Source: a phage. Taken from it: 47,623 nt of DNA. A program made the position numbers and the translations under genes. The DNA lies in the sequence record PZ445468.1; one strand, 5' to 3'. Shown in pieces: positions 1,841 to 46,540 of this stretch (positions are counted from its first letter, which is position 1; every line of letters starts with the position of its first letter). The notes under the pieces were generated by a model. It searched no databases. It was given only the letters and a program-made list of their open reading frames with translations, and was not told where the DNA came from.

Positions 1841-1869
1841 ATTCTACATCACCACTATATCCACTTCAA
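1841..1869 (-). promoter_or_regulatory. sigma70-like promoter TTGAAG-17-TAGAAT (leftward)
   Basis: hexamers read on minus strand; the -10 coincides with ATTCTAC copy of recurrent motif. Confidence 0.4.
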
Positions 1870-1907
1870 CATTTATTATTATTGTTGATAAACCCGCATC
1901 ACCACAC

Positions 1908-1939
1908 TTGACCAATCTACACCGAGCGCATAGTATAAT
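1908..1939 (+). promoter_or_regulatory. sigma70-like promoter TTGACC-17-TAGTAT/TATAAT (rightward)
   Basis: hexamers with 17-bp spacer upstream of 1968 gene; two AATCTAC motif copies inside. Confidence 0.5.
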
Positions 1940-1967
1940 CTACATCAGGTTTATCGGAGATATCACT

Positions 1968-2174
1968 ATGCGCAGCTATGCAGGATTCACACAGGAGGAA
2001 AAAGAGCAGGTTTATTCACTGGCACGGGCTGGTGTGCCTGATGACGTGATTTGCCGTAGGTATGACATCGACGAGGATTTTCTGCTGCGCGTTATTGATG
2101 ACGTCTTCGTTAACCTGCAAGAGAAGCGCGGGTACAAGGGTATCTGCTGCAAGAATGATTTTTTGAGAGGGTGA
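1968..2174 (+). CDS. hypothetical protein
   Basis: ORF with GGAGA RBS; internal Met start of track ORF 1908..2174. Confidence 0.45.
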   Translation: MRSYAGFTQEEKEQVYSLARAGVPDDVICRRYDIDEDFLLRVIDDVFVNLQEKRGYKGICCKNDFLRG

Positions 2175-2175
2175 T

Positions 2176-2583
2176 ATGTTTAATAATAAACTAAAGAAAA
2201 TAATCCGCGATGCTGCGGATAAGAAATACACCAAAAAGATTGATATATCATTCATTGACGGCACTGGCCTGTACAATCACGCCTGTCACCTGAATGCGGT
2301 AAACCGGGCTAGAGATGGGAGTTCGTGCGCAGTGGTTGAGGTTGTGGTGATTGATGATAAGTCGGTGAGCGCTCATTACATCAATATGCAGTCAGACGGC
2401 ACATACATCGACTACACGCTTGGGTGGCACTGGTCAGGTGCCGATTACCGATTTGTGCGATATGTTCCGTTTACTGAATGGAGTGATATAACAAGTTCGC
2501 TTGAGCGCCTCAAGTCAGAACTTTGTAAGCCAGTCAGCAAATGGATGCGCGCCTTTATGTTAACTAATAACGAAATGTGTTGA
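2176..2583 (+). CDS. hypothetical protein (135 aa)
   Basis: ORF tightly packed after previous gene. Confidence 0.5.
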   Translation: MFNNKLKKIIRDAADKKYTKKIDISFIDGTGLYNHACHLNAVNRARDGSSCAVVEVVVIDDKSVSAHYINMQSDGTYIDYTLGWHWSGADYRFVRYVPFTEWSDITSSLERLKSELCKPVSKWMRAFMLTNNEMC

Positions 2584-2591
2584 GGTGATTT

Positions 2592-2759
2592 ATGATTATT
2601 GAAGGTAAAATTTTTACTGATTTGTCGGTCAGCGAGATAAAAGAAAAATTTTCAATGAACATCAACCAGGAAGGCGATGCAATTATCATCGACAAACACC
2701 AGGCCGCACAGCTCATCGAAGTCCTGCAGCGTTGGATTAATGGTGAGAAGATTGAGTGA
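2592..2759 (+). CDS. hypothetical protein (55 aa)
   Basis: short ORF read by eye, GAGGTGA RBS, stop overlaps next start (TGATG). Confidence 0.4.
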   Translation: MIIEGKIFTDLSVSEIKEKFSMNINQEGDAIIIDKHQAAQLIEVLQRWINGEKIE

Positions 2760-2947
2760 TGAGCGTTTATTTTATTCATGCTGAAGCCGTGCTGAGTAAC
2801 GGCTGCGTTGCTGAGAAGATAGGAAGAATCGCAATTGCTGATAGCGCCGTGACGGCGTTCGATGGATTCTTTTCTGATGCTACGGTTGCCAAGCTACGAG
2901 AGCAAGGTATTGAAGTTGTAATTGATAAATTCGAAAAGGTGGAGTGA
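2759..2947 (+). CDS. hypothetical protein (62 aa)
   Basis: ORF with overlapping start/stop coupling. Confidence 0.4.
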   Translation: MSVYFIHAEAVLSNGCVAEKIGRIAIADSAVTAFDGFFSDATVAKLREQGIEVVIDKFEKVE

Positions 2948-3108
2948 TGGCACTATTCTGGTCGTTCTGGATTCCATTTAACTTTATGTTCTGGTGGGCT
3001 ATGGCCGCCGGAGTGAATGAACCAAGCATGCTACACTTCATGATCGGTTCATTTTTCGCGGTGGTAACTGGTATTGTGCCATGTTTACTGTATCAATATT
3101 TCAAATAG
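2947..3108 (+). CDS. small hydrophobic membrane protein (53 aa)
   Basis: short ORF read by eye; W/F-rich hydrophobic sequence; GGAG RBS. Confidence 0.35.
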   Translation: MALFWSFWIPFNFMFWWAMAAGVNEPSMLHFMIGSFFAVVTGIVPCLLYQYFK

Positions 3109-3360
3109 AGGTGGGGTAATGACAAGGAAATAGGTTCACGAATATTCTATTGCAGCCAGGAAGCGCGTCGAAGGTGTATGGACGAATCATGGATTGCGCA
3201 GCAATAGAGCTAAATTGTTTGCAAAATGTCACCAAGTAGTAATTGGCGACAGGATTGAGTGTTACGCGTTTAATCAGTGGATGAAGTCTGGTGTTGTTAA
3301 TAAGGGATAATTACATCAGCACCGCGAGCATCATAATCAGCATTGCCACCATGCTATAAT

Positions 3361-3387
3361 CCCATCCAACGTGATGGGATTTTTTTA
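3361..3387 (+). terminator. rho-independent terminator
   Basis: CCCATC-caacgt-GATGGG hairpin followed by ATTTTTTT; immediately preceded by TGCTATAAT. Confidence 0.5.
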
Positions 3388-3394
3388 TTGGTGA

Positions 3395-5727
<2,333 letters not shown>

Positions 5728-5741
<14 letters not shown>

Positions 5742-5756
5742 GGGCTTTGGTTTATC
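5728..5756 (+). terminator. rho-independent terminator
   Basis: AGCCCTC-taagt-GAGGGCT hairpin plus TTGGTTT. Confidence 0.5.
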
Positions 5757-5824
5757 TTATCAGCATACACAGAACAAATATTATTATCGCATAGCACAAT
5801 ATCTCTGCGACGCTGAATATTGTT

Positions 5825-6433
5825 TTAATCATCCAGTTTCACACCGGGAATTTTTCCTGCTGCGATTGCGTCATAAATATGTTTAGCAATGTGCTTGATT
5901 TGCTCCTTATTGTTGCTAATTAACTGACTAGCTTTTCCTATCTCAGAAATAGTCTCATCACGCTTCCTTTCTGATTCTGTGCGGAGTGGGCGGAAATTAT
6001 GCGTGTTTGATTGCAGAGCTACCGGTGTGTTATTGCTCCAACCAAAAACAGCTTTACCATCAACGGCTACGCACTTAAATCTACACCACTCACTTCCGTG
6101 AACCTTGTATTGGTATTCGCACTCACACCCTGCTGGCGGCAGACCTTCTCCGTTCCATGCTGGCTTTTGAGATTCGGCTAGTGCTGCTTTGTATTGCCAA
6201 TAGGTCACTATCGACTCCTTGTGGTCGCAAGATAAAGGTACGGCATTAATTCCATGCCAGTAATACACAAGGCTATTCCCAGTGTGATGTTTCCATGAAA
6301 ATCCATCATAGTGCGGGTCATTTGTGTCCCATACGCACAGCGAACCGTCATTATCTTGAGTAATTGACAGTGCACCATCAGGCCACCCACCACGCTTAGG
6401 CAATTCTTGAACTAACAGGTCGATAAGTTTCAT
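5825..6433 (-). CDS. hypothetical protein (202 aa, W/C/H-rich)
   Basis: long ORF, first gene-sized member of antisense island. Confidence 0.5.
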   Translation of the reverse strand: MKLIDLLVQELPKRGGWPDGALSITQDNDGSLCVWDTNDPHYDGFSWKHHTGNSLVYYWHGINAVPLSCDHKESIVTYWQYKAALAESQKPAWNGEGLPPAGCECEYQYKVHGSEWCRFKCVAVDGKAVFGWSNNTPVALQSNTHNFRPLRTESERKRDETISEIGKASQLISNNKEQIKHIAKHIYDAIAAGKIPGVKLDD

Positions 6434-6654
6434 TTTGTTTCTCCATCAAAAAGGATTTCTTTGTATTCATCACTAACTTCATATGCCTTATTTAGTTCGA
6501 ATACTTCATACGAGTTTTGACCACCTTCTCGCCATGAGAGTTTGTCATTTAGTTTTGCGGCAACAGCGTCGGCTTCATGCTTGTGTGGATAAACAGCAAC
6601 GACATTTGATGAGACGCCGCATTCGATGCAACCAACATTAAATACAAGCCACAT
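6430..6654 (-). CDS. hypothetical protein (74 aa)
   Basis: ORF with 4-nt overlap to downstream gene. Confidence 0.45.
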   Translation of the reverse strand: MWLVFNVGCIECGVSSNVVAVYPHKHEADAVAAKLNDKLSWREGGQNSYEVFELNKAYEVSDEYKEILFDGETK

Positions 6655-6656
6655 AA

Positions 6657-6920
6657 TTATTCCCCCAGCGCCTTATTAACCGCCTCACGCGCATTATCCA
6701 GAGCGCGACGCTTGCTTGATATTGTCCAGACTTTGCCTGAGTGGTCGTCGTAGATTTCAAGTAGCTGCTGGAGTGCGGCGAGCATGGTCTTGTTATTGTC
6801 GTGACGATACCCAACAGAAAACCCAAGCCAAAGCCAGTCCTTTTCTCTATCCGTCATGCAGCCAAAGTCAACAGAATCGAACCATTTGCTAAATAATTTG
6901 TGCACTTCGCGCTGCGTCAT
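6657..6920 (-). CDS. hypothetical protein
   Basis: ORF; ATG start chosen inside track ORF 6657..6932. Confidence 0.45.
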   Translation of the reverse strand: MTQREVHKLFSKWFDSVDFGCMTDREKDWLWLGFSVGYRHDNNKTMLAALQQLLEIYDDHSGKVWTISSKRRALDNAREAVNKALGE

Positions 6921-6928
6921 CGCCAACC

Positions 6929-7069
6929 TCACTTAATATATTCCACAATCTCGCATTCGCGCATCTGCACCAGACCAAATGGCGCGCAGAGTTTGCCGAA
7001 TTTCATAACTTTAATCTGAGACAAATCGAATGCGGCGGTTTGTCCGGTGGTGAATTTTATGATTGCCAT
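6929..7069 (-). CDS. hypothetical protein (46 aa)
   Basis: short ORF read by eye; GGAGATAGAATA-ATG RBS. Confidence 0.3.
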   Translation of the reverse strand: MAIIKFTTGQTAAFDLSQIKVMKFGKLCAPFGLVQMRECEIVEYIK

Positions 7070-7275: not shown

Positions 7276-7337
7276 AAATCACCTCAATTATTTGTGTATC
7301 TGAATGATTAAAGCCGTCATGATGACGGCGGCATGGA

Positions 7338-7466: not shown

Positions 7467-7533
7467 GGTTGTCATCCTCAATTAACATTGCGGAGGTGTT
7501 TCCGCTTGATGTAGATACTATGCATCATCACTC

Positions 7534-7561
7534 AATCTACGTCAACATCATTGTGATAGAA
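7534..7561 (+). promoter_or_regulatory. extended -10 promoter TGTGATAGAAT preceded by AATCTACGTCAAC
   Basis: TGnTAnAAT element 28 nt upstream of endolysin ATG; inverted motif copy at 7506-7516. Confidence 0.45.
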
Positions 7562-7588
7562 TTAATCATTATTTGAACAGGAGGCAGA

Positions 7589-8898: not shown

Positions 8899-8906
8899 TT
8901 CTTATG

Positions 8907-9026: not shown

Positions 9027-9055
9027 AAAAAAACCCCGTAATGGGGCTTTGTTTT
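9027..9055 (-). terminator. rho-independent terminator for minus-strand operon
   Basis: CCCCGTAATGGGG hairpin with A7 on plus side (U-run on minus transcript). Confidence 0.65.
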
Positions 9056-10402: not shown

Positions 10403-10447
10403 TTGACCAATCTACATCATTTAGTCAATACTTATTGACGTAGATTG
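10403..10447. promoter_or_regulatory. divergent promoter region with convergent motif pair
   Basis: TTGACCAATCTACATCA ... TTGACGTAGATTG between divergent operons. Confidence 0.4.
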
Positions 10448-10474
10448 TACCACAACGGAAAAGGTGATGTGGAA

Positions 10475-11145: not shown

Positions 11146-11393
11146 GCGCACCACATATGCCGATGATGAATGAGGAAGGATTTTTGAACTGCCCATTCTG
11201 TGGCTGCAATGAAGTTAGCATTGCTGTCGATGAGGATGGGTGGGAGTACATAGAATGCGGAGATTGCTATTGCCGTACAGACGCATTTCGTAACAGAGAG
11301 CTAATGACTAAATCATGGAACACGAGAGAGGGACACATCTACACCGCAGACGACTTCAATCAGGCAGCGGAGGAGCGCGATTATGGATTATAA
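11142..11393 (+). CDS. zinc-finger protein
   Basis: CPFCGC ... CGDCYC cysteine pairs. Confidence 0.45.
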   Translation: MSAPHMPMMNEEGFLNCPFCGCNEVSIAVDEDGWEYIECGDCYCRTDAFRNRELMTKSWNTREGHIYTADDFNQAAEERDYGL

Positions 11394-11871
11394 ATCACAA
11401 ATCATGCGCGTGATTATGATGCATCCCGGCGCAACGCGTGCATACATTGAGAAGCATTGCGGAGGAAAGCACTCTAGCACTACAACGCACCGTCTGCATG
11501 AGATGCTTGCGCTTGGCTTTATTCGCCGCGAGAAGTCAGTGATTCGTGGTGGCAAGTGGCAGTATAAGTATTTCATCTCTGATGATGCGGCAGGTATTGA
11601 TGATGCAATTAAGTGCCATCTGATTGATAACGCTGGCGCAGAAGTGAAAGAAATCAGCATCGCAACTGGCATTGATTACCGAATCGTGAAAAGCCGCGTC
11701 CGCATTATGTTTCATAACGGTGATGTGACGCGAAGCTATGACCACCACAAGAAACTGTGGCGTTACTCATGGAAGGAGCAGGAAGTAAATGTGAGCAACC
11801 TGTTTAATTCACTTCTTCGCAACGCAAGAGGTCGTCATGGGGAAAGCGAAACGCAAGAAGCAAGAGTATGA
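11383..11871 (+). CDS. hypothetical protein, possible winged-helix DNA-binding
   Basis: two helix-rich repeats; weak. Confidence 0.4.
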   Translation: MDYKSQIMRVIMMHPGATRAYIEKHCGGKHSSTTTHRLHEMLALGFIRREKSVIRGGKWQYKYFISDDAAGIDDAIKCHLIDNAGAEVKEISIATGIDYRIVKSRVRIMFHNGDVTRSYDHHKKLWRYSWKEQEVNVSNLFNSLLRNARGRHGESETQEARV

Positions 11872-16827: not shown

Positions 16828-16853
16828 AAAACCCGCATTATGCGGGTTTTTTA
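16828..16853. terminator. bidirectional rho-independent terminator
   Basis: AAACCCGCATTATGCGGGTTTTTT between convergent genes. Confidence 0.7.
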
Positions 16854-17569: not shown

Positions 17570-17832
17570 CAATCACCATCATCGTGAAGGCTGTTGAGTT
17601 TGCCTCCGCAGAAAGGACAAAAATTAAGCAGAACTGGATTTTTATTTCCAGCTTGATAGGTGACTTTTTCACCCAATGATTCTCCTGTGGAAATTAGCAC
17701 CGATTGCACAGAAACTAATCCTTTTGTGTTTTTATTTGCTGCACGCTGAAGGTATTCAGCGAGATGTGCGCAAATATTAGTTGCGTATCTTTTCCCTTCG
17801 CTTGCGCATGGAATTAATTTTTCGGTCATCAC
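17569..17832 (-). CDS. zinc-ribbon protein
   Basis: C-terminal CPFCGG motif. Confidence 0.45.
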   Translation of the reverse strand: MMTEKLIPCASEGKRYATNICAHLAEYLQRAANKNTKGLVSVQSVLISTGESLGEKVTYQAGNKNPVLLNFCPFCGGKLNSLHDDGD

Positions 17833-18638
17833 ATCTTCTCCAGAATAGCCATAACTTCGTGAATATCAGCAACAGGGATCTGGATAAATTCCTCATCCTC
17901 TGCCACCACATGACCAGCAGGAAGAATCACATGGTCGGCTGGCTTCAATAACTCAATCAAACGGTCTACTGGCTTAATCTTTTTCGACTTCAGCACCTTC
18001 GCAGTGACCTTATCCTTACCTTGCGCCTTCGCTTCTTCCACTGCCTCGTCGATAAGTTTAACCGCATCATCACCATGCTCACGCGTTACTGCTACGGCAT
18101 TTGCATAGCTGATTTGCCCGGCGCTGATGCGCGCCTTTACTTCCGCCGTAACGTCACCAAGCGATAGGTGCATTTGCACGTCAGATACTGAGCGACCTAC
18201 CTTTTTTGCTATTTCTTCATTAGTCCAGCCAAAGCCTTTCAGTCGCGTGTAAGCCTTTGCGCGTTCAAACGGGTCGAGCTTCTTGCCCTGACTTGATGAC
18301 ACCATAAAGGCGATTTTATCCGCCTCATCCCCTGTGAAATCCTTACACTCAATACGAACGATTGGTGCTCCGCGCTCAATGGCTCGCAGTGCGCCGAGAT
18401 AGCGATGCTGACCATCAAGAATGCGGATTCCCTTCTCGTCAGGAATAACTGTTAATGCTGGTAATGGTTGGCCTGACTCCCAGCACTGCGCGAAATATTC
18501 CACATGCTGCTCATCTGCTTCGCGGATGTTGTATCCCGGCTCCAGATAGATTTGCTCCACTGGCACGAGATAGGTTTTGTTAACAGCGATGCCGTTTCGC
18601 GTCTCTTTGTCTGAATAGATTTTGCTGAGTGTTTTCAT
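17829..18638 (-). CDS. ParB-like nuclease domain protein (DGQHR motif)
   Basis: ILDGQHRYLGALRA motif typical of ParB/DndB-like N-terminal domain. Confidence 0.55.
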   Translation of the reverse strand: MKTLSKIYSDKETRNGIAVNKTYLVPVEQIYLEPGYNIREADEQHVEYFAQCWESGQPLPALTVIPDEKGIRILDGQHRYLGALRAIERGAPIVRIECKDFTGDEADKIAFMVSSSQGKKLDPFERAKAYTRLKGFGWTNEEIAKKVGRSVSDVQMHLSLGDVTAEVKARISAGQISYANAVAVTREHGDDAVKLIDEAVEEAKAQGKDKVTAKVLKSKKIKPVDRLIELLKPADHVILPAGHVVAEDEEFIQIPVADIHEVMAILEKM

Positions 18639-18649: not shown

Positions 18650-19126
18650 TTAATCAAAAATCCAATTTTCTGTTTCCGAGTTGTGACCGAGGTTGTAGCT
18701 AATAACAGGTTTTGATGTGTCTATTTTTTTTAATTCATCAACAACAGTTGTGATTACGGCTATATCCTGTTTTAGTCGCATCAAGTGATATTTCTTTCTA
18801 CGCAACAAGCTTTCAAGCGCTAGTTGCTGAGATTGAAACGCATAAGATCGTTCTGCTGACTTAGCAATTTTCTTGATTGCATATCTATTTTTCTTATCTT
18901 TCCACTCCGCAAGCCAGCGGGGAATATCACGTTCATGATTGTATACTTTGAACCAGTGGGCTGGGGCTATCCATACATAGTACGCTGTCTGGTGAAAAGC
19001 AATGAACTGCTGAGAAATTATTTTGATACCGTCACTTTCGACTGTTTCAAAATACTTCCAGTAAACAGGCATGCCGTTGAACTCTGTTTTAGCATCTGGA
19101 AATGGAACTGACCATGATTCACTCAT
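18650..19126 (-). CDS. hypothetical protein (158 aa)
   Basis: first gene of antisense operon. Confidence 0.5.
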   Translation of the reverse strand: MSESWSVPFPDAKTEFNGMPVYWKYFETVESDGIKIISQQFIAFHQTAYYVWIAPAHWFKVYNHERDIPRWLAEWKDKKNRYAIKKIAKSAERSYAFQSQQLALESLLRRKKYHLMRLKQDIAVITTVVDELKKIDTSKPVISYNLGHNSETENWIFD

Positions 19127-19168
19127 TTTTCATCACCTCTAACATTTATTGTTGTTTCTACGCCACCA

Positions 19169-19214
19169 ACTATAAACGCCGCACTAATCTACGTCAACAG
19201 GAATATGCTAAAAT
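19169..19214. promoter_or_regulatory. divergent promoters
   Basis: leftward TTGACG-17-TATAGT; rightward extended -10 TGCTAAAAT; contains AATCTACGTCAAC. Confidence 0.5.
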
Positions 19215-19244
19215 CATGCTAATCAAACAACAGGGGATTTAAAC

Positions 19245-21930: not shown

Positions 21931-21970
21931 GTTTATTTAGTGCTGGTTTAAGCATTGCCAGCGTGCTTTC

Positions 21971-22034
21971 TTAATATCCAGCCCCGTAGCCCATACATAC
22001 CCATACATATGATTGCGATAATGCTGGATATTAA
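21971..22034. repeat. perfect 12-bp inverted repeat enclosing tandem CCCATACATA
   Basis: TTAATATCCAGC at 21971-21982 and GCTGGATATTAA at 22023-22034. Confidence 0.6.
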
Positions 22035-22791
22035 GTGTTGTGGCTCTGGTGCCTCCAGATTGCTGGTCGGTAAATCCAGCAGGCAATCACAAAACCGAAG
22101 TAGTGTTTCTTTACCTTGCCGCGTGCGCATAGCCGCATTACCACAACGGAAAGAGCACTGGTGGGACGCCTTCCTACATCATTGCGGTTCGGATTCCCCA
22201 CATAGCGCGTCACGGTCGTCGGCGAATTTTCCGTGGTCAATGCTCTTTCCTGTTGTGTGTTGTGGAGTGACGCACCATCTCACTATTAAATGTTAACCCA
22301 TTCCCAGCCCCACAACATGCGCTACGGTTAAGATTATTGCGTATATTGTATGGTCTTGCTGGTCACAACTGAAAGGGCACTTAACAGAAGATAGGTCTGA
22401 TTGCCTCGGATGATTTCTCAGTAGCCTAAATGCCCTTACATGTTGTGTGCCACGTTTCGTGTGGCTTACGGCAACGACATTACCGGATTATTCGATGCAC
22501 CTATGCGGGATTTACTAAGGCAACATGCCCGTTGTTACCCACTAAAGAGAGCACTATCTTCAAACAGACTTTGCGCGCAAGAACGACGATCAATCACAAT
22601 TCTCTCATTGGTAGGTGCCCATTATTAATCACACCGGGCCAGTGCGCCGAATTTGTTTACAAGGAATCGGAAGACCTTGCTGACTTACAGGCTATTACGC
22701 CGCCATCAGAACAACATCATCGTTTGCATTTATCTTTGTGGTCAGTTTCTAAAAAGTCCGCAAAGTCGCTCACGAAAACTATCTGAAATAC

Positions 22792-22835
22792 AATCTACAC
22801 CACAAAATAATCGCTGTCAACACCTGTGATATAAT
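22792..22835 (+). promoter_or_regulatory. extended -10 promoter TGTGATATAAT with upstream AATCTACACC
   Basis: TGnTATAAT 37 nt upstream of major tail ATG. Confidence 0.5.
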
Positions 22836-23594: not shown

Positions 23595-23619
23595 AAAAGC
23601 CCCGAAAGGGGCTTGTTTT
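23595..23619. terminator. bidirectional rho-independent terminator
   Basis: AAAAAGCCCCGAAAGGGGCTTGTTTT. Confidence 0.7.
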
Positions 23620-24848: not shown

Positions 24849-24897
24849 AATCTACATCACCGCCTGGCAGGTGTCAACACCACTGAGATGATATAAT
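24849..24897. promoter_or_regulatory. divergent promoters
   Basis: leftward TTGACA-17-TAGATT; rightward extended -10 TGATATAAT before tail chaperone. Confidence 0.55.
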
Positions 24898-34121: not shown

Positions 34122-34147
34122 AAGGCCCCGAAAGGGGCCTTTTCTCT
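34122..34147. terminator. bidirectional rho-independent terminator
   Basis: AAGGCCCCGAAAGGGGCCTTTT between convergent genes. Confidence 0.7.
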
Positions 34148-36675: not shown

Positions 36676-36700
36676 TCATCATCACGTAAATGAATCTACA

Positions 36701-37135
36701 TCAATCCACATCAAAAGGCAAGCCAAAATAGAAAAGTGTGGCTTTTTTTAGTTCATCAAGTCCATAAGCGATGGCGGCATAATGACCAAGCCTACACATC
36801 TCTGTTAGCACATCCGATTGCTCCTTGCTCACTCTGCTTTTACTTTTATCGCGGCGCTTTGACTCAATCATTCCGCAACTGTGATTTACACCCGGAGTCA
36901 TTATTACGTTGTCGCCTATTCCAGTCTTAACTCCCATCTTCTGGCGCTTCAGCACAAACTGCACTCTGCTTGATGTGCCAGTTTCGTTTGGTACATGAAA
37001 CCACAGAACATCAGGGAATCGGTGTTGCATCCATGTGCCGTAACCCATCTGGTCAGTCTCCTCTTTAGGACACTCACCACGATAACCGCTATCAAATACC
37101 CATATACCGCTATCAAGCTGCTTCACTTTGCTCAC
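36701..37135 (-). CDS. VRR-NUC domain nuclease
   Basis: 144-aa ORF with D ... E-x-K pattern (GIGDNVI ... GMIESKR). Confidence 0.45.
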   Translation of the reverse strand: MSKVKQLDSGIWVFDSGYRGECPKEETDQMGYGTWMQHRFPDVLWFHVPNETGTSSRVQFVLKRQKMGVKTGIGDNVIMTPGVNHSCGMIESKRRDKSKSRVSKEQSDVLTEMCRLGHYAAIAYGLDELKKATLFYFGLPFDVD

Positions 37136-39050
37136 CTGTAAAATCTTTTCTGTGGATTATGTCTCGGCCTTTATCATTAATACGATGCGTGATGCGTTTT
37201 GGCGATTTAATCAATCCAGCATACATCATGAATTGTTTTGCGTTCTGGCATTTCAGTATTTTCCCAGCCATTGACTTATCATCAAGGTGAGGAAAGATAG
37301 CCTTTGCCTTAAACATGTTTTTCATGTGAGTTGCGCCGCTATAAGGGTAGAAAACCTCGCTAGCCCATCCTTCTTTTCCGTCACAACGATTAATCCAGTA
37401 GCGATATAAAACCCCCTCTCCATCCTTCGTTAACTGAACCTTGAAATCCATAACGTCAGCCCATTCATTATCCGTATACGCACGCTCATTCAGTGCCGCA
37501 TTAGGGTCGCGCAGAACATGATCGCAATGTCGGCAATAACGCGCAGTAGGGTCATTTTTAGTCCCGCAACCATCATCAAAAATCCGTATTCCATGCTTGT
37601 CGAAACCGCAACGAATGTAGCTGAAAAATTCTTCGCATCGACCATCTGGCGATAGTACATCTTTGCCAATGCAGCGGCGCGCATATGGGCTGTTCATTGT
37701 TCCGCATTTCGGGCACGGAACCTGTTCACCACTGCGCCTTGAACGCTGAGCCTCAGCTTCTTCCAGAATCGGGTCTTCATACAGCTGACCAAGCTCAAAC
37801 ATCGTGCCTGAGAAATCAAGAACCAGATGGTCTTCTTTATGATACCCAGCATCAATTTGCTCCTTCTTCAGCAGGCGCATACCGCGACCAAGCAACTGGA
37901 CAAGGAGAGTTAGCGACATTATTTTCCTGAGGATTACGCTTACATCCCATAGCGGAATGTTTACTCCGGTCGTCAGCGCGGCTATCTGGAATGTGTATTT
38001 TATTTTGCCAGTGTACGCATCCTTTAGAGCCTTACGTCTGGCTTTTTGCCCCATATCTTCGGTGACAATAGCGTAGCTACCTTCTGGCAGATATTTAGCA
38101 GCTTCTAAACAATGCTTCTTGCCTGCGCAGGTAATTAACACTCCATTTCTATCTTTTGTAAGCTCCATCACTTTGAGCATGATTTTCTGTGTGAGAGTAC
38201 CTTGCTCAAGGATTTCTTCCTGCATCTGCTTAAGTTGTTCGGCAGTGAAGTCCTGCGTTCCGTCGATATCAGATCCACGGAATGCTGAAAGGTCGTAATG
38301 CAAATCATCAACATCATGAAGGCCAAAGATTGTTGGAACAACAAATCCGCGATCTACCATGTACTTTGTGTCAATGTTTATTATTTCATTCTTCCAGTAC
38401 GCACCTTTCATTGATTCAGTGCCACGGAATGGGCTTCCGGTGAATCCAATTGTTATCATTTCATGACCATGTTTTGCCTTGCATCTCCTGTTAAGTTCCG
38501 TAAGTATTACACCATATTGTGTTGTTGGATTCTCACTAATAATGTCCTGCCACGGAACTTGGTGCCCTTCATCGCACAGGCAAAATCTGGGGGCAAAATC
38601 ACTCAATCCACCTTTCTTAACGTCACCACTTGATTCATCTTTTTTATCAAAAAGTGCGTTAACGATTGTTCCTTCAGTTCCGCATATAATAGGGTATGCT
38701 GTACTTTTCCTGCCAAGAGATGCGCTATAAAGAGAATTTTTTACACCGCACTCCCACATCATTTCAGCATTCTGCTCTGCTATTTCCCCCTGCCTTGAAA
38801 TAACAAGGCCATCCCACCCCATATCCTGAAATCTACTGCAAAGCATTGAAATTATCACGGTCTTTCCTGATGAAACCGACGCTGTAACATAGCTTGGTTC
38901 AGGTTTCTTGCCAAAATTACGAATAACCTCAGCGCACTTTGCGTAAACAAGCCATTGGTAATCATATGGCTCTATGGAGCCTAATTTTATTGATTGCTTT
39001 AACTTCTCAATATTAATCTCTGAAATCATTTTGTCTATTTTGTTCATCAC
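37113..39050 (-). CDS. DExH-box superfamily II helicase
   Basis: Walker A SSGKT, DEGH motif II, C-terminal Cys4 zinc-finger pairs. Confidence 0.75.
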   Translation of the reverse strand: MMNKIDKMISEINIEKLKQSIKLGSIEPYDYQWLVYAKCAEVIRNFGKKPEPSYVTASVSSGKTVIISMLCSRFQDMGWDGLVISRQGEIAEQNAEMMWECGVKNSLYSASLGRKSTAYPIICGTEGTIVNALFDKKDESSGDVKKGGLSDFAPRFCLCDEGHQVPWQDIISENPTTQYGVILTELNRRCKAKHGHEMITIGFTGSPFRGTESMKGAYWKNEIINIDTKYMVDRGFVVPTIFGLHDVDDLHYDLSAFRGSDIDGTQDFTAEQLKQMQEEILEQGTLTQKIMLKVMELTKDRNGVLITCAGKKHCLEAAKYLPEGSYAIVTEDMGQKARRKALKDAYTGKIKYTFQIAALTTGVNIPLWDVSVILRKIMSLTLLVQLLGRGMRLLKKEQIDAGYHKEDHLVLDFSGTMFELGQLYEDPILEEAEAQRSRRSGEQVPCPKCGTMNSPYARRCIGKDVLSPDGRCEEFFSYIRCGFDKHGIRIFDDGCGTKNDPTARYCRHCDHVLRDPNAALNERAYTDNEWADVMDFKVQLTKDGEGVLYRYWINRCDGKEGWASEVFYPYSGATHMKNMFKAKAIFPHLDDKSMAGKILKCQNAKQFMMYAGLIKSPKRITHRINDKGRDIIHRKDFTGEQSEAA

Positions 39051-39622
39051 CTACTCCTGCTAAAATCACCGTGTAATGATTTTCTATATTTCTTTATGGC
39101 GTTACCTGCTTCCTCTGCTGTATTAAAGTAACCAAGATTAAATCTCCTGCCGTTAACCGCTATCCTTGCTCTCCACTTTTTACTTTTTGCATCAAAGCCA
39201 ACCCCTTTAAATCCAGATTGGTTATCAATTCTGATTTTCCTATTCATGCAGTTTTCGCTTGGTTTTGCCTCTCTTAAATTTAAGATGGCGTTATTTGATT
39301 TATCTAAGTCGATATGGTCAATCTCAAATTAAGGCCACTTCCCGTTAACATAAAACCATGCAAGTCTGTGGGCCATAAACCTGTATCCACCTATAACTAT
39401 GCGTACATATCCGGTATTCTCAACATATCCAGCTCTCGGTGAGTTACTGTGATTACCATTTCTCCACGTAAAAATTCCTGTTGATTTTTCATAATTAATT
39501 TTTGATTTAAGAAACTCATGGCTTAGCGATGACTCCTTTTGCTTTCTTCTCTCTAAATTTCTTGACTCTGCACCTGACAGAGCAGCACTTCGCCTTTGCA
39601 GTTCCGATGAACTCATTTCCAC
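39047..39622 (-). pseudogene. HNH-AP2 homing endonuclease interrupted by in-frame TAA
   Basis: both halves align to intact paralogue at 47116..; TAA at 39329-39331 sits where paralogue has E/K. Confidence 0.6.
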
Positions 39623-39665
39623 AAACCTCGCACTTCTTTACGGTGATCGCCATTTCATAACCTCT

Positions 39666-39729
39666 ATTGTAACGATTAATTGTTTCATTTCAAGTAACGA
39701 TTGATTGTTTCATGCGAGTAAATTACAAT
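39666..39729. promoter_or_regulatory. divergent promoters with tandem 18-bp repeats
   Basis: leftward TTGAAA-16-TACAAT; rightward TTGATT-17-TACAAT; AACGATT(A/G)ATTGTTTCAT twice. Confidence 0.45.
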
Positions 39730-39760
39730 GATTCTACATCATCGTCAACAGGAAGATTTT

Positions 39761-40714
39761 ATGAGATACGACTGGAAAGACATTGAGCCAAAAATGCTCG
39801 GAAATTGGCAGGCCGCCATCATGTCTATCGTCAATGTGGATAGCAGAGTTTTCAATGGCAAGCACCAGCCATGCCCGTCATGCTCAGGAAAAGACAGATA
39901 TCGCTTTGATGATAACTTCGAAACAAAAGGCGATGGCGGCGCAATATGCAATCAGTGCGGGTCCGGCAGCGGCATGAACTGGCTGATGAAACTTTCAGGC
40001 ATGAACTTCCCTGAAGCACTGGAGGCGCTTGGTGGATTCCTGAACATGCACCCACGCGAAAAGCTGGAGGCAATCAGGAAGGAACTACCGAAGATAAATT
40101 ACAACGATGACTTCATCACCGAGCAGGAAGTAGCCGCAATCATGTCTAAAACGACGCGTGTCGCGATGAGTGAGTGGACTTTGATAAATGGTATTGGTTG
40201 CGACGTTAGCGTCGTCAGAGGGAAATCTGGGGAGCTTATTGCGGTTGAGATGGTGCGCGCTGACACAATGAGTCCGTGCAACGTGGCATTCATTGGCATG
40301 GATGGTGATGCATTCAGAACATTCTACAAAGCAGGATATAACAAAGACTCAGCCATAAACGGCAAACTCACACGAGGCGCGATAAGCCCAATCGGAGAAG
40401 ATAACGGAAAGTTCATTTATCTGGTGTCTGATTATGCCGACGCGTGGAAATGCCATTACTTCACTGGCGCGCATGTCTGGTGCTGCTGGTCGCCGGAAAA
40501 TATGTGGGAAGTGGTGCGCTCGGTTAGCGGTGAGACGAAAGCAAGGTTACGCTGCATAGTTAATTATAAATTTGACGAGCTTTGCGCTGCGGAAAATGCA
40601 GGACTTCCGGTGATGCTGCCTGATGATTCCGACACAATCAGGATGGCGAAGCGAATCAGAAGAAAGATTTATGACGCTGGCGAGTTGATAGAGAAGATCT
40701 CAGTTTGCAGATAA
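39761..40714 (+). CDS. putative DNA primase (zinc-ribbon)
   Basis: N-terminal CPSC ... CNQC zinc-binding motif; AGGAAG RBS. Confidence 0.5.
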   Translation: MRYDWKDIEPKMLGNWQAAIMSIVNVDSRVFNGKHQPCPSCSGKDRYRFDDNFETKGDGGAICNQCGSGSGMNWLMKLSGMNFPEALEALGGFLNMHPREKLEAIRKELPKINYNDDFITEQEVAAIMSKTTRVAMSEWTLINGIGCDVSVVRGKSGELIAVEMVRADTMSPCNVAFIGMDGDAFRTFYKAGYNKDSAINGKLTRGAISPIGEDNGKFIYLVSDYADAWKCHYFTGAHVWCCWSPENMWEVVRSVSGETKARLRCIVNYKFDELCAAENAGLPVMLPDDSDTIRMAKRIRRKIYDAGELIEKISVCR

Positions 40715-40717
40715 AGG

Positions 40718-42406: not shown

Positions 42407-42720
42407 ACGCGCAAGAATTTACCCTGGATAACACCCTGTTTCACCGTTAACACAGCACCCACCCTGTCAGCCTCAATTTTTAGCGCCTTCTGAAGTGACG
42501 CCATTGTCATCTGAAAACCTCGCTCTATGTCGTATGCGTAGCACCCATCTCTGCCCCCAATCAAAATTGAAGTTGAATACCCGTTCTCAAAGTAAAACTG
42601 ACACCCATCAGGAGCGGTAAGATTATTTATCACGTCGTGAGCAAGCGATGTCGTAACAGGGAATATCGGCGCGCAACTCATACTCACCTCACCCAACTCG
42701 CTTAATGTGCAAAACTTCAT
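42391..42720 (-). CDS. hypothetical protein (109 aa)
   Basis: ORF. Confidence 0.4.
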   Translation of the reverse strand: MKFCTLSELGEVSMSCAPIFPVTTSLAHDVINNLTAPDGCQFYFENGYSTSILIGGRDGCYAYDIERGFQMTMASLQKALKIEADRVGAVLTVKQGVIQGKFLRVWRVY

Positions 42721-42937
42721 CGAAATATGAGCACGTTCTGAATTTCATCCCAAAATCCTCACCAACCCTTCCGAGACACGCGCGAAATCTTTCAACAGAC
42801 ATCACTTTATCTGCAATATCCTCATAAGAAATCGAATTAACCTGACCAACATCCATATGTTTTGCAACGCGATACACGAATTCCATCTTTGAACCATCAC
42901 GGTACATTTTGTTTCTCATAGACACCTCCATCCGCAT
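42689..42937 (-). CDS. hypothetical protein (82 aa)
   Basis: ORF. Confidence 0.4.
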   Translation of the reverse strand: MRMEVSMRNKMYRDGSKMEFVYRVAKHMDVGQVNSISYEDIADKVMSVERFRACLGRVGEDFGMKFRTCSYFDEVLHIKRVG

Positions 42938-43084
42938 TCCAACAGGAACTATAGATAAAAAATAAAATTAGCGCAACACAAAACAGGTCTAACCAGCAAT
43001 AATAGCTACCACACTTAACAACTGGTCAGACCACCATCTCGTATCTGATATATGTGGATGGTGCACGTCGTTCAATTTGTGCTC

Positions 43085-43443
43085 GATTTTTACCTAATTT
43101 ACCGTATATTTATTAGTCAGTTTTTTGCATAACCAATTGATTTATATGATTTTACCTGTTTTACCGGAAATCTAATGAGTATTTTCATCATTGAGAGTAG
43201 TAGTATATTAATTGGTCTAATTTTTAAAGAACTCTAATAAAATCAATATATTAATATAAGAAAGTAACTTACTTACTTATATAGGATTTACCGGGTAAAA
43301 CCGGTAACTCCTCCGCAGTCCGCGTCATTACTGGATTGATTTTTACCACCTGTAGGTAAATACAGTAGTTTTTAAGTCAGGATTGTTTTGTAAGATGTTG
43401 ATTACCGGTACTTTATTTGAAAAACCGGGATTTACCGGGTTTT
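43085..43443. repeat. iteron array (TTTACC / ACCGG core), putative origin
   Basis: at least 10 direct and inverted copies of GATTT(T)ACC(G/T), including palindromes TTACCGG-N6-CCGGTAA and TACCGGTA. Confidence 0.55.
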
Positions 43444-43516
43444 TGTGGTGTGATTAATAATCGCGCAATTAGCCATGTTTCACCAGAACTCACTGATGCG
43501 ACACCTGAAAATCGCA

Positions 43517-43545
43517 TTGACGTAGAATTACAACTGATGTAGATT
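43517..43545 (+). promoter_or_regulatory. sigma70-like early promoter TTGACG-17-TAGATT
   Basis: hexamers 30 nt upstream of first early ORF; second motif copy overlaps. Confidence 0.5.
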
Positions 43546-43575
43546 GAACTCATCAAAACAAACGAGGGTGAAGAG

Positions 43576-43722
43576 ATGAAAATCAAATACCGTGAAGAAT
43601 TTGAAGATGCACAGGTTATGGCACGTATCGCAGTTGAGCGCACAGACAACATCATTCCTGCCGAAGCATTCTGGAACGCAGCAATGCAGGCTTTAATCTC
43701 TGCGTATGGGTTAAGTAAATGA
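43576..43722 (+). CDS. hypothetical protein (48 aa)
   Basis: short ORF read by eye with GAGGGTGAAGAG RBS. Confidence 0.35.
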   Translation: MKIKYREEFEDAQVMARIAVERTDNIIPAEAFWNAAMQALISAYGLSK

Positions 43723-43814
43723 CAGGCGCAAAACTCGAGCTTATCGCCAGTCTGGTTATCTTGGCATTCATCATTATCGCAGTGGCAGTTTCAAAATCAG
43801 GGTATGAGAGGTGA
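43719..43814 (+). CDS. small membrane protein (31 aa)
   Basis: short hydrophobic ORF, ATGA overlap. Confidence 0.25.
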   Translation: MTGAKLELIASLVILAFIIIAVAVSKSGYER

Positions 43815-43899
43815 AATGAGCAATTGGCATAACGAACATATCATGCAGTGGTATCGCCGTAGCATCAAGGCAATCATTAACTCTTATGAGGTTTAACAA

Positions 43900-44082
43900 A
43901 TGGCAAAGACTATCTATCGCCGCGAGAAACTGGAACCAGAACTCGGTCACGTTGGCGCGCAAAACTTTATGAGCAAGCAGGCACGTAATGCGATGGAATC
44001 TATCCGCGTGAATCGCGTTGTGCGCGTGTTTAATGGTGAAGGTAAGCGTAGGGTAATGGATGAGCTGATTATCGTATTCTGA
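43900..44082 (+). CDS. hypothetical protein (60 aa)
   Basis: ORF. Confidence 0.4.
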   Translation: MAKTIYRREKLEPELGHVGAQNFMSKQARNAMESIRVNRVVRVFNGEGKRRVMDELIIVF

Positions 44083-44118
44083 ACTCGATTCAGCGATCTT
44101 ATTTCTAATGGTGATGAT

Positions 44119-44352
44119 ATGGCAAAAGTAAAAACATACGAGTTCTGGTTTGTTCAGAACAAAATGTATGCAAGCAGGACAATCAGGCGAGTCAGCTGGT
44201 GGAATAAGTGGTTAATCATGTCTGGCTGCATTGTGCTGGCAAAGTGCAAATTCAAAGCGATTGACATCACAGATGAGGATGCGCTCAAAATCGCAAAGAT
44301 TGAGTTTGAAGAAGATGGCTATTACGAAGAAATTATGGGGGTTAGGGTATGA
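44119..44352 (+). CDS. hypothetical protein (77 aa)
   Basis: ORF. Confidence 0.4.
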   Translation: MAKVKTYEFWFVQNKMYASRTIRRVSWWNKWLIMSGCIVLAKCKFKAIDITDEDALKIAKIEFEEDGYYEEIMGVRV

Positions 44353-44846
44353 GTGAAGTTAAGCGAATTGATATCGACCACAAAGGACTTCCATTCACTG
44401 ATAATAATGGGGTTTACGTTTTCTACGAAGACTATGCAGCACTAGAAGCTAAATGCGCTGCGCTGGTGGTGGAGAATGCGGTGCTGAATAAATTTATCGT
44501 ACAGAGTTGCTACGTGTTTGACGGCGAGCAGGGTGAACTATCTGATGCGTATATCTGCGCAATAGATGGAAGGATGCCGCAAACCACAGCCACCGACGCT
44601 TTCTTGGCTGAAGTGAAGACTGAAGCACGCAAGGAGGGAGCTTACTTTGTGGCGAACAGAATGCTGGCTGCCTGGGAAGCTGGTTTTATTGATGATACTG
44701 CAAAGAACGCCGCGGATATTGCCAGGATGATTCTTACCTCTACTGAGTTTATGGCTAATGCGCCGGAAGGCGATTTTGACCGCTCATTCTCTGATGGCGT
44801 TCTCGAAGATATCGCCGCCCAGCTTCGCAAAGGAGGCAACCAGTGA
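44349..44846 (+). CDS. hypothetical protein (165 aa)
   Basis: ORF. Confidence 0.45.
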   Translation: MSEVKRIDIDHKGLPFTDNNGVYVFYEDYAALEAKCAALVVENAVLNKFIVQSCYVFDGEQGELSDAYICAIDGRMPQTTATDAFLAEVKTEARKEGAYFVANRMLAAWEAGFIDDTAKNAADIARMILTSTEFMANAPEGDFDRSFSDGVLEDIAAQLRKGGNQ

Positions 44847-45451
44847 GCGAGATTAATTACCAGGCTCTGCGTGAAGCGGCGGAGAAGGCGACGAAAGGCC
44901 GGTGGGCTGTTGAGTTCGACGATGAGATTTACTCCACTGACGGCGTGAACCATGAGCAAATAGCCATGGTATTCAGTGAAAACGAAGCGCGTGATGCTGC
45001 ATTTATCGCCGCAGCCAACCCCGCCACCGTGCTGGCGCTGCTGGATGAGCTGGAGAAGACGCAGGCGCAATCGTCAAAGTGGTGCGAAGCCTTCCATAAA
45101 GCCGTATCGGTTGGTGCTCGCTATGAAGAGCGCATAGCAGAACTGGAGGGGGACGCATTCAATCCCGCAATTATTGATGTGGTAGCAGAACGCCAGCGGC
45201 AACAGTCGGTTGAAGGATGGACTCCTGAACATGACAACGCATATCAAAATAGCGAATTAGCAGATGCAGCGGCTTGTTACGCAATTCATGCGCACAACCA
45301 AGGTTTCTCCACTCCAGCACATTGGCCGTGGTCTCCTGACTGGTGGAAGCAATCAGGAGCACGCCGCGACTTAGTAAAAGCTGGCGCTCTTATTCTGGCA
45401 GAAATTGAACGTATTGACCGCGCCGCTGGCATTGGCGTGAAGGGGGAGTGA
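44843..45451 (+). CDS. Ead/Ea22-like protein
   Basis: N-terminal ALREAAEKAT ... NPATVLALLDELE pattern. Confidence 0.5.
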   Translation: MSEINYQALREAAEKATKGRWAVEFDDEIYSTDGVNHEQIAMVFSENEARDAAFIAAANPATVLALLDELEKTQAQSSKWCEAFHKAVSVGARYEERIAELEGDAFNPAIIDVVAERQRQQSVEGWTPEHDNAYQNSELADAAACYAIHAHNQGFSTPAHWPWSPDWWKQSGARRDLVKAGALILAEIERIDRAAGIGVKGE

Positions 45452-45452
45452 T

Positions 45453-46115
45453 ATGAGCACTATCACCAAAGAATTCACCAAAGAGCAGTTACAGCAAATT
45501 ATCGAAACTGACCACGTTCAATGTGGTGAGGCTTCTGCACTGGCGCGTATCGCGCTGGCATCACTCGAAGCGGAGCCTGTAGCGTGGGCGCACAGATTAA
45601 TCAACAAGCGTAACGGAGTCGTTCACCCTTGGGTTTACGGTAGCGCAGAGGCGTGTCCAAGCGAGGTGGATATCTTCAATATTGAGGTAATGCCGCTCTA
45701 CACCGCCCAGCCAGCGCCGGTATCTGTGCCCGTAGCTCTGAATCGACTGCGCTCCATAGTGGCTGACCCAAGAGCTTTACCTCGGCGCAAGGAGTGGATT
45801 AGTGGGCAGCAATACAGCTATGTGCTTCTTGAAAACGTAGAGGCGATGGTAGATGACGCCTGCCGCACCGCCATGCTTCATGGCTCAGAACCGGAAACTG
45901 ATAACACAAACCAGCAATTCGAAAGCCTGGATAAAAGTGAATATCTACCCGTTCATATTAATTATCAGTGCGCTCTATGTGGCGCACGCTTTAGTGGGGA
46001 TGTATTGATGACCAGACACCAACGACGCCGCTATACCACTGGCGCTAAAATCTTCCTTGCTGTTTATATGTTAGCACTGGTGGCAGCCATTGCAGGAGTT
46101 GTGCATTATGTTTAA
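45453..46115 (+). CDS. hypothetical protein (220 aa)
   Basis: ORF, hydrophobic C-terminal tail. Confidence 0.45.
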   Translation: MSTITKEFTKEQLQQIIETDHVQCGEASALARIALASLEAEPVAWAHRLINKRNGVVHPWVYGSAEACPSEVDIFNIEVMPLYTAQPAPVSVPVALNRLRSIVADPRALPRRKEWISGQQYSYVLLENVEAMVDDACRTAMLHGSEPETDNTNQQFESLDKSEYLPVHINYQCALCGARFSGDVLMTRHQRRRYTTGAKIFLAVYMLALVAAIAGVVHYV

Positions 46116-46287
46116 CGATATCAACGAAGCCATTCTTCATGCCATAAAGAAGCACGCAATGTATGGCAAGCGATACCATTTCGCTCTTATCCAGAGATTA
46201 AACAAAATTGAGGTGAGCACTCATCCAGAAGATGACAGACGACAGGTGATGTGGTCAACGAGGTCTATGAAGCATGCAAACAACTAA
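46108..46287 (+). CDS. hypothetical protein
   Basis: ORF, ATG internal to track ORF. Confidence 0.35.
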   Translation: MFNDINEAILHAIKKHAMYGKRYHFALIQRLNKIEVSTHPEDDRRQVMWSTRSMKHANN

Positions 46288-46447
46288 ACAGAAAGTCTGG
46301 CAACTCGCCAAACAACACGAGCTGGATGATTTTATCGCAAAGGTGGCAAAGACATTCCCTGACGCACTTGAAATCGTTCATGTGCAGACGCGAACAGAAA
46401 ATGCATGGTGCTATGCTGGCAAGCGTGATAATGATGGTATACAATAA
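46274..46447 (+). CDS. hypothetical protein (57 aa)
   Basis: short ORF read by eye with GAGG RBS. Confidence 0.3.
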   Translation: MQTTKQKVWQLAKQHELDDFIAKVAKTFPDALEIVHVQTRTENAWCYAGKRDNDGIQ

Positions 46448-46492
46448 GCACATAACCACCATTGCTTTCACTCATATCATCACCCAACCTTT

Positions 46493-46518
46493 AACCCGCC
46501 TTGTGCGGGTTCTTTTTT
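46493..46518 (+). terminator. rho-independent terminator
   Basis: AACCCGCCTTGTGCGGGTTCTTTTTT. Confidence 0.7.
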
Positions 46519-46540
46519 ATCTACGTCTATGTGTTAAAAT
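46519..46540 (+). promoter_or_regulatory. extended -10 promoter TGTGTTAAAAT preceded by ATCTACGTC
   Basis: TGnTAAAAT 36 nt upstream of 46576 ATG. Confidence 0.45.

Follow-up and report, generated by a model that had tools for sequence, protein, structure and literature searches.

An asymmetric 11-bp element conserved in the sigma-70-type promoters of Escherichia phage TanjaMuster_Bas81 and its relatives is a candidate phage operator

The C1 operators of phage P1 are asymmetric, bound by a monomer and dispersed at more than 12 positions, where they overlap -35 or -10 boxes and occur singly or in pairs. The middle promoters of phage T4 pair a sigma-70 -10 box with a MotA box whose centre is fixed at -30, and both MotA and AsiA are encoded by the phage. 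The KorB and KorA operators of plasmid RK2, about a dozen, are palindromes at defined promoter positions. The site of mycobacteriophage L5 carries a -35-like TTGACA on one strand. In the Cluster A mycobacteriophages, a monomeric repressor with two DNA-binding domains recognizes over 20 asymmetric 13-mers, which are located in promoters and in the gaps between genes and the orientation of which is tied to transcription (PMC9283540). Here, we analyzed a stretch of phage DNA of 47,623 bases (the window), which is the complete genome of Escherichia phage TanjaMuster_Bas81 (Bas81; PQ850630.1) rotated by 1,048 bases, and describe a recurrent element of 11–12 base pairs (bp), T-TGAYG-TAGATT. We regard this motif as a real, strongly conserved element embedded in promoters, for which a role as an operator is the best available reading.

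In function, the closest analogue is found in the operators and stoperators of Cluster A mycobacteriophages (L5 gp71 / TipsytheTRex repressor). In both systems, an asymmetric site of 11–13 bp is present in 15–30 copies over the genome, in promoters and short intergenic gaps, and the sites are conserved across the whole phage cluster. Site orientation follows transcription in both, which in Bas81 is seen at 36693 and 22792, the informative sites outside divergent regions. However, the L5 protein is the immunity repressor of a temperate phage, whereas Bas81 is virulent. L5 sites are mostly found between co-directional genes, where they stop elongation. In contrast, nearly all Bas81 copies lie on promoter hexamers at the starts of units; only 36693/36703 sits between co-directional genes, and promoter hexamers are found there too. 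The P1 C1 operators share with the Bas81 motif the features listed above, of which binding by a monomer is a proposed one for Bas81, but the P1 operator is 17 bp long and P1 is temperate; no P1 C1 homologue was found in Bas81 by Pfam or PHROGs.

Bas81 is a Skatevirus-like siphovirus for which neither an integrase nor a CI-like repressor is annotated; the Skatevirus-like group comprises small virulent siphoviruses from E. coli K-12 with restored O16 antigen (PMC11990801). Its structural genes all lie on the plus strand and are split by blocks of small and replication genes, many of them on the minus strand. Therefore, the genome is made up of transcription units that alternate, and the convergent junctions between them hold bidirectional terminators.

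WATCTACRTCA occurred nine times exactly, compared with 0.08 expected from dinucleotide shuffles, and none of 100 shuffles reached nine. When up to one mismatch to AATCTACRTCA, the opposite-strand reading of T-TGAYG-TAGATT, was allowed, 17 copies were found compared with 2.02 expected (shuffle maximum, 8). Exact copies were located at 1937, 7507 (reverse complement, rc), 7534, 10409, 10436 (rc), 19186, 24849, 36693 and 43535 (rc), and copies with one mismatch at 1841, 22792, 39731 and 43518 (rc). Those at 1914 and 46518 had two mismatches to AATCTACRTCA, although 46518 had one compared with the W form; further near-copies were found at 36703, 24895, 31925 and 6078, in addition to a degenerate TGGCGTAGAAA at 19155–19165. 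A sequence-only reading of the window had listed 15 copies of a motif recurring at 15 or more sites. All 15 exist, nine of them exactly and the others with one or two mismatches, and the comparison with dinucleotide shuffles bears out the recurrence. Ten of the 15 coordinates given there stand, and five (7506, 10435, 43517 and 43536, all rc, and 46519) are shifted by one base.

Of the 17 copies, 11 fall entirely inside the 3,163 annotated non-coding bases, which make up 6.6% of the genome (binomial P = 9e-10). Five further copies lie in doubtful open reading frames (ORFs) of 41–42 amino acids (aa) over promoters (0051 and 0088), at the 3' edge of gene 0080, which 36693 overlaps in part and 36703 entirely, and among the opening codons, probably mis-called, of the primase gene. 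The copy at 6078, the sole one in a solid gene (0014), is probably due to chance. The earlier statement that copies are often paired was confirmed: there are two inverted pairs (7507/7534 and 10409/10436), the arms of which are separated by 16 bp in each, and three tandem pairs (43518/43535, 36693/36703 and 1914/1937, with offsets of 17, 10 and 23, respectively). Read as TTGAYGTAGATT, the motif faces into the gene blocks that follow. The distance to the next same-strand start codon was 22–130 nucleotides (nt), except for 22792 (approximately 860 nt), from which two minus-strand tRNA genes are reached across two implausible plus-strand ORFs, and 39731 (683 nt), from which the helicase gene is reached across an apparent HNH pseudogene.

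The window was scanned independently for the sigma-70 consensus, and the coordinates of the pairs were verified afterwards. Eight hexamer pairs with a spacing of 17±1 bp contained the motif, and three of these scored 10/12, among seven 10/12 matches genome-wide. In one register, TTGACG is the -35 box and TAGATT falls in the spacer; in the other, TAGATT is the -10 box and TGAYG lies at -17 to -13 (Table 1). As there is no spacer between the halves, polymerase cannot use both halves of one copy together; a copy supplied one hexamer, never both. The proposal in the sequence-only reading that the halves coincide with a -35-like TTGACG and a -10-like TAGATT was borne out in this form, i.e., the halves are used alternately, with the partner hexamer 17 bp away. 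The motif does not form an extended -10 (TGnTAnAAT), since its TG abuts TAGATT (TGATG-TAGATT) and is one position off.

In a third group, the copies run opposite to the promoter that holds them. Those at 1914 and 10409 come straight after a TTGACC -35 box, and those at 1937, 7507, 10436 (minus strand) and 39731 (primase promoter) start in or just past the -10 box and run over +1. The copy at 7507 (TAGATA) and the reversed copies at 1914, 1937, 10409 and 39731 are unable to act as promoter hexamers, yet they lie inside the promoter footprint. All copies fall within approximately -35 to +12 of a promoter. Two copies per promoter were found at 0019 and 0050 (at -35 and +1) and at 0006 and 0030 (in the spacer and at +1). 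On sequence and comparative evidence, the motif is very likely part of the sigma-70-type promoters of the non-structural units.

The structural operons differ in this respect. Eight extended -10 promoters (TGnTAnAAT) on the plus strand, at 3352, 7554, 13219, 19206, 22827, 24889, 31919 and 46532, are positioned 35–46 nt upstream of the starts of structural or lysis operons. They have no -35 box, the motif gives neither hexamer, and at least three of the eight are kept in the Klebsiella clade (reverse complements in the alignments). These eight appear to form a distinct late promoter class. The motif had been described as lying upstream of operons, which stands for the non-structural units but not for the structural operons. 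At 7554 and 19206, the motif of the divergent early promoter lies back to back with the extended -10, at -35 to -24. A protein bound to the motif at these two sites would shut the early promoter and could leave the late one free. The arrangement could work as a switch, although the spacing is 1 bp different in the two clades, which speaks against a precise activation geometry.

The motif was the most frequent 11-mer in Bas81, E. coli phage swi2, Klebsiella phage BUCT541 and Aeromonas phage pIS4-A, and 15–19 copies per genome were present in six phages, which belong to two clades and have hosts in Escherichia, Salmonella, Klebsiella and Aeromonas. Information content was confined to the 11 positions TGAYGTAGATT and fell to background just outside, with T favoured directly upstream. 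We aligned eight orthologous promoter sites from four to six phages each. In these alignments, 79 of 88 motif columns were invariant compared with 342 of 882 flanking columns. The invariant columns included the spacer TAGATT of -35-type promoters and the TGAYG upstream in -10-type promoters; the non-hexamer half was as conserved as the hexamer half, whereas the true spacers and flanks diverged between the clades. In the ParB-operon promoter, for example, the bases between the motif and TATAGT are agtgcggcgtt, tgtgtggagtt or gagggtgtcgc depending on the phage. The motif itself differed between the clades in a preference for TGAT or TGAC in its left half and in nothing else. Conservation beyond the hexamers, which had been claimed from the Bas81 sequence, was confirmed by the unused half across the aligned phages. 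A scan of IMG/VR for TTGACGTAGATTGA was uninformative, as it returned group members mixed with chance single matches. The two registers and the conserved unused half indicate that one set of sigma-70 contacts cannot explain the conservation, and the alignments argue for the 11 nt being read as a unit by something beyond these contacts.

The motif might instead be nothing but the family consensus of strong sigma-70 promoters, with no dedicated reader, in which the extra bases tune polymerase or reflect one ancestral cassette. Both halves match the hexamers, their partners stand at the 17-bp spacing, and the consensus of the early-promoter families of T4, T5 and T7 likewise extends past the hexamers. 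However, no single contact set covers the unused half in both registers (-35 to -24 or -17 to -7), and 90% of the motif columns are invariant across clades in which flanks and spacers were free to diverge. In addition, some conserved copies are unfit as hexamers (TAGATA, or reversed copies in the spacer or at +1). We consider this explanation unlikely.

We also assessed whether the motif could be the site of host polymerase redirected by a phage factor, i.e., a MotA/AsiA-like activator or a small sigma-like protein. The motif promoters would then be middle promoters with TAGATT as the -10 box, and the sigma-70 partner hexamers would give early expression from nearly the same sites. All intergenic copies do face a same-strand gene start. 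At 7534 (TAGAAT), 19186 (TAAAAT) and BUCT541 43775 (ATAACT), a -10 box follows the reversed motif at a distance of exactly 12 bp, which is the T4 MotA geometry. The MotA boxes of T4 are also short, asymmetric boxes in sigma-70 promoters, at many sites of a virulent phage. Unlike them, the Bas81 motif varies in register (-35, -10, spacer and +1) and also gives -10 boxes. Among the 85 proteins scanned, Pfam revealed no homologue of a sigma factor, an RNA polymerase, MotA or AsiA, and no single-subunit phage RNA polymerase was present among the Pfam/PHROG matches or in the annotation. Moreover, the copy at 7507 ends in A at the last -10 position, the three tandem leftward copies (1841, 1914 and 1937) seem too many for two tiny genes, and the motif and the divergent -10 are not equally far apart in the two clades, the difference being 1 bp. 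A redirected polymerase is, in our estimate, quite improbable.

We favor the reading in which the motif is additionally the operator of a phage-encoded regulator and overlaps early and middle promoters; on sequence grounds, we assign it a probability of about 0.5. The element, which sits in sigma-70-type early/middle promoters of Bas81 and of all its Skatevirus/Roufvirus-like relatives, would be recognized by a phage-encoded, probably monomeric, sequence-specific DNA-binding protein. Because the copies lie in the promoter interval given above, binding would exclude RNA polymerase, and early transcription across the genome would be shut off or autoregulated. The structural operons have extended -10 promoters, which do not depend on a -35 box and would stay active. 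The suggestion, hedged at the time, of a phage-specific promoter class or an operator for a phage regulator agrees with the placement in sigma-70-type promoters and with the conservation of the whole unit. A palindromic operator (for a dimeric repressor, ParB parS or KorB OB) was considered and rejected: the motif has no dyad symmetry, TTGAYGTAGATT and its reverse complement AATCTACRTCAA having only the central ACGT in common, and there is no symmetric partner beyond the 11 positions.

Pfam and PHROG scans of the 85 proteins returned two DNA-binding candidates only, 0034 and 0049 (Table 1). Bas81_0034 matched PHROG 1687, 'MarR family' (E = 9e-56). An AlphaFold2 run on the lone sequence gave a predicted local distance difference test (pLDDT) value of 36; the model used was built from a 23-sequence alignment (mean pLDDT 81.5) and shows two consecutive winged-helix domains followed by a C-terminal helix. 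Foldseek matched this model to tandem winged-helix proteins (Pol III RPC34/RPC62, ScpB, SelB and YceH) and MarR-type regulators. Homologues of 0034 are confined to this phage group (156 records). An asymmetric bipartite site would suit a single protein chain that carries two DNA-reading domains, in parallel with the two-domain monomer that reads the Cluster A sites. No gp71-type repressor homologue was found by Pfam, PHROG, a PDB profile search (0034 family) or among the top 50 Foldseek matches. We suggest that 0034 is the most likely binder and that its two domains could read the two halves of the motif.

Several observations weigh against an operator read by 0034. Between the clades, 0034 is only 36–38% identical, whereas the motif is nearly unchanged; of the recognition helices of 0034, the second is conserved but the first only poorly. 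The 0034 orthologue is deleted in seszw_280L, a viable genome-reduced mutant of phage seszw (PMC9825161), yet all 18 motif copies are kept. Since the orthologue is dispensable there, 0034 could modulate or repress but could not be an activator on which the phage depends, and the proposed role is that of a dispensable modulator. For any operator, it would be an odd coincidence to be made up of two adjoining hexamers, one like a -35 box and the other like a -10 box, and the strict orientation relative to the transcribed genes also fits a promoter element read by polymerase.

The copies could alternatively be sites of Bas81_0049, which might silence transcription globally in the manner of KorB on plasmid RK2 or bind them as dispersed centromere-like sites. 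This protein is a true member of the ParB family, with an N-terminal ParB domain and a helix-turn-helix (HTH; Pfam HTH_ParB 1e-10 and KorB 6.6e-5; PDB profile matches to Spo0J, 5e-16, and KorB). It is 80% identical across the clades, which matches the invariance of the motif; it is retained in all genome-reduced seszw mutants examined, and one motif promoter drives its own operon. RK2 and Bas81 are alike in having a ParB-family protein in the same genome and about a dozen copies in promoter regions. However, ParB, Noc and KorB sites are palindromic, whereas the Bas81 motif is asymmetric and, unlike the KorB and KorA sites, variable in register. The motif is absent from unrelated phages with 0049 homologues of 44–46% identity (Serratia OS31 and E. 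coli ep3), which weakens the link between 0049 and the motif. The cluster of iteron-like TTTACCGG repeats at 43085–43445 would be a more conventional ParB target for 0049. It is very unlikely that 0049 is the reader of the motif.

This repeat cluster was observed in an AT-rich, 500-bp non-coding gap. It consists of (A/T)TTTACC(G/T)G repeats with palindromic ACCGGT cores and contains GGATTTACCGGGT twice. TTACCGG occurs nine times in the genome compared with 2.5 expected, and five of the nine are in this region; in swi2, AGTTACCGG is found ten times genome-wide. The cluster is probably a replication origin or is bound by the ParB-like protein.

A host transcription factor or nucleoid protein of enterobacteria could explain why an identical motif is found in phages of different host genera, and the motif has a loose likeness to the DnaA box (AATCCACA at 36703) and to the FNR half-site (TTGAT). 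By eye and against the consensus sequences, however, the DnaA box is mismatched at two required positions and the second FNR half-site is missing; IHF and other host factors also fitted poorly, and we know of no E. coli regulator consensus that matches the motif. We regard a host factor as extremely improbable. Gene 0006, which lies behind a promoter with two operator-like copies, encodes an HTH-like protein of 68 aa. It was kept only as a weak candidate binder, as it has an acidic third helix (DEDFLLRV) and matched no family.

A broader form of the operator reading is that one 11-bp module, fixable to either hexamer, i.e., used as -35, as -10 or as a pure operator, is read by a monomeric 0034-type protein or by the ParB/KorB-like protein and silences all non-structural units together. 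It would be a lytic counterpart of the mycobacteriophage stoperators with an unrelated fold. This form is tentative, and we hold it to be doubtful.

Table 1. Motif copies, sigma-70-type promoters that include them and candidate binding proteins in the window
Feature	Position	Strand	Description
Motif copy TGATGTAGAAT	1841..1851	-	TAGAAT (1846..1841) = -10 of leftward gene 0005 promoter; -35 TTGAAG 1869..1864
Degenerate motif copy CGGTGTAGATT	1914..1924	-	adjoins -35 TTGACC (1908-1913) of rightward gene 0006 promoter; reversed; operator-like, ~-29..-19
Exact motif copy	1937..1947	-	adjoins -10 TAGTAT (1931-1936) of gene 0006 promoter; reversed; ~-6..+5
Motif copy TGATGTAGATA	7507..7517	+	overlaps last base of -10 CATAGT (7522..7517) of leftward gene 0019 promoter; spans +1
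Motif copy TTGACGTAGATT	7534..7545	-	TTGACG (7545..7540) = -35 of leftward gene 0019 promoter; CATAGT -10 17 bp on
Exact motif copy	10409..10419	-	adjoins -35 TTGACC (10403-10408) of rightward gene 0030 promoter; faces gene 0029, start 34 nt beyond
Exact motif copy TGACGTAGATT	10436..10446	+	~+2..+12 of gene 0030 promoter (-10 AATACT 10427-10432)
Degenerate second copy TGGCGTAGAAA	19155..19165	-	directly past 0050-operon -10, across +1; five relatives read TGACGTAGAAA
Motif copy TTGACGTAGATT	19186..19197	-	TTGACG = -35, TATAGT (19174..19169) = -10; leftward 0050/ParB-like/RusA operon promoter
Motif copy TGGTGTAGATT	22792..22802	-	TAGATT = -10, consensus -35 TTGACA (22820..22815); leftward, to two minus-strand tRNA genes
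Exact motif copy	24849..24859	-	TAGATT = -10, consensus -35 TTGACA (24877..24872); leftward promoter of block 0069-0065
Two overlapping copies (36693 exact; 36703 TGATGTGGATT)	36693..36713	-	TAGATT 36698..36693 = -10; -35 TTGCCT 36721..36716
Motif copy TGATGTAGAAT	39731..39741	-	primase/helicase divergent region; faces helicase; adjoins -10 TACAAT (39724-39729) of rightward primase promoter
Tandem copies TTGACGTAGAAT and TGATGTAGATT, offset 17	43517..43545	+	rightward promoter of block from gene 0089
Weak motif copy AGACGTAGATA	46518..46528	-	between terminator and extended -10 promoter of putative small terminase gene
TTGACG-17-TATAGT	19197..19169		TTGACG half = -35
TTGACG-17-CATAGT	7545..7517		TTGACG half = -35
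TTGACG-17-TAGATT	43517..43545		both halves, from tandem copies
TTGACA-17-TAGATT	24877..24849		TAGATT half = -10
TTGACA-17-TAGATT	22820..22792		TAGATT half = -10
TTGAAG-17-TAGAAT	1869..1841		TAGATT half = -10
TTGCCT-17-TAGATT	36721..36693		TAGATT half = -10
TTGACC-17-TAGTAT	1908..1936		holds reversed copies
TTGACC-18-AATACT	10403..10432		holds reversed copies
Bas81_0034	11383..11871	+	candidate binder, 162 aa, tandem winged-helix; in putatively motif-controlled early operon
Bas81_0049	17829..18638	-	alternative candidate binder, 269 aa, ParB/Spo0J/Noc/KorB family (Pfam and PDB profiles)

Individual copies differed in their use. The motif at 1841 is 34 nt from its start codon. The final A of the 7507 copy makes a poor -10 box, and the same variant is present in swi2 and BUCT541; its partner at 7534 also occupies -35 to -24 of the rightward extended -10 promoter of the endolysin. 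On the other strand of the 10436 copy, AAT forms the end of an extended -10, TGGTACAAT (10452..10444), of a leftward promoter. The promoter at 19197..19169 is among the best sigma-70 matches of the genome (10/12). The overlapping copies at 36693/36703 form an internal leftward promoter for exonuclease VIII, recombinase and SSB. In the tandem promoter at 43517..43545, the first copy gives the -35 box (43517–43522) and the second the -10 box (43540–43545). Membership of the 46518 copy is doubtful, given its poor conservation in relatives.

Terminator hairpins were observed at the convergent junctions between plus- and minus-strand blocks (1431–1450, 5726–5748, 9030–9050, 16828–16850, 23597–23614 and 34122–34141), and at least four (5726–5748, 16828–16850, 23597–23614 and 34122–34141) scored as terminators on both strands. 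These junction hairpins bound the transcription units begun by motif promoters. After the ParB-operon promoter, a leader, ACAACAATAAATGTTAGAGGTGATG (19128–19165), was invariant in six phages, and a similar AACAATAATAATAAATG (1868–1885) adjoins the 1841 promoter. The 0087–0085 operon (helicase/primase-like; 42920–42990) is the only minus-strand block without an upstream motif, and a weak TTGCGC-17-TATAGT is found there.

Several gene calls overlap the promoters. ORFs 0051 (19114–19242) and 0088 (43417–43542), which sit on promoters, are probable annotation errors, as are the Cys/Arg/Ser-rich 0062 and 0063 (21955–22786), which are antisense to the transcript expected from the tRNA-facing promoter TTGACA-17-TAGATT. 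The annotated start of the primase gene 0083 (39728) falls inside its own -10 box, and the true start is likely the ATG at 39761 (Met12), 11 codons downstream. Between helicase and primase, 680 bp (39048–39727) are unannotated; swi2 and pIS4-A have an HNH endonuclease gene there, and the broken ORFs that alone are left in Bas81 are probably the remains of a decayed homing endonuclease. At 39693..39666, TTGAAA-16-TACAAT forms a second promoter-like site, which is also leftward. Compared with wild-type seszw, seszw_280L has a T-to-C change (L008 25753 vs L007 28712; TTGATT to TTGACT) 2 nt upstream of the helicase-promoter motif. The change restores the TTGAC(G/T) seen there in Bas81, swi2, Vi II-E1 and pIS4-A, and may be an adaptive promoter mutation.

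We found no description of the motif in the full-text literature using sequence strings and the phage group, in a search whose coverage left out the main genomics paper on 9NA-like phages. The GenBank record of Vi II-E1 annotates other repeats, and the motif is not among them. Likewise, no regulatory map for Skatevirus/Roufvirus/Macdonaldcampvirus-like phages was found in the literature. Phages of these three groups are frequent isolates on E. coli, Salmonella and Klebsiella, and several are under development for biocontrol or as engineering chassis, e.g., the genome-reduced seszw. For them, the motif provides a ready map of early and middle promoters and corrects several gene calls; it also offers a simple test system, which consists of a single 11-bp word plus two candidate proteins. 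Should the operator reading be true, the motif and its reader would form a compact, portable repression module and would be a second, independent case of genome-wide control by asymmetric sites and a monomeric reader.

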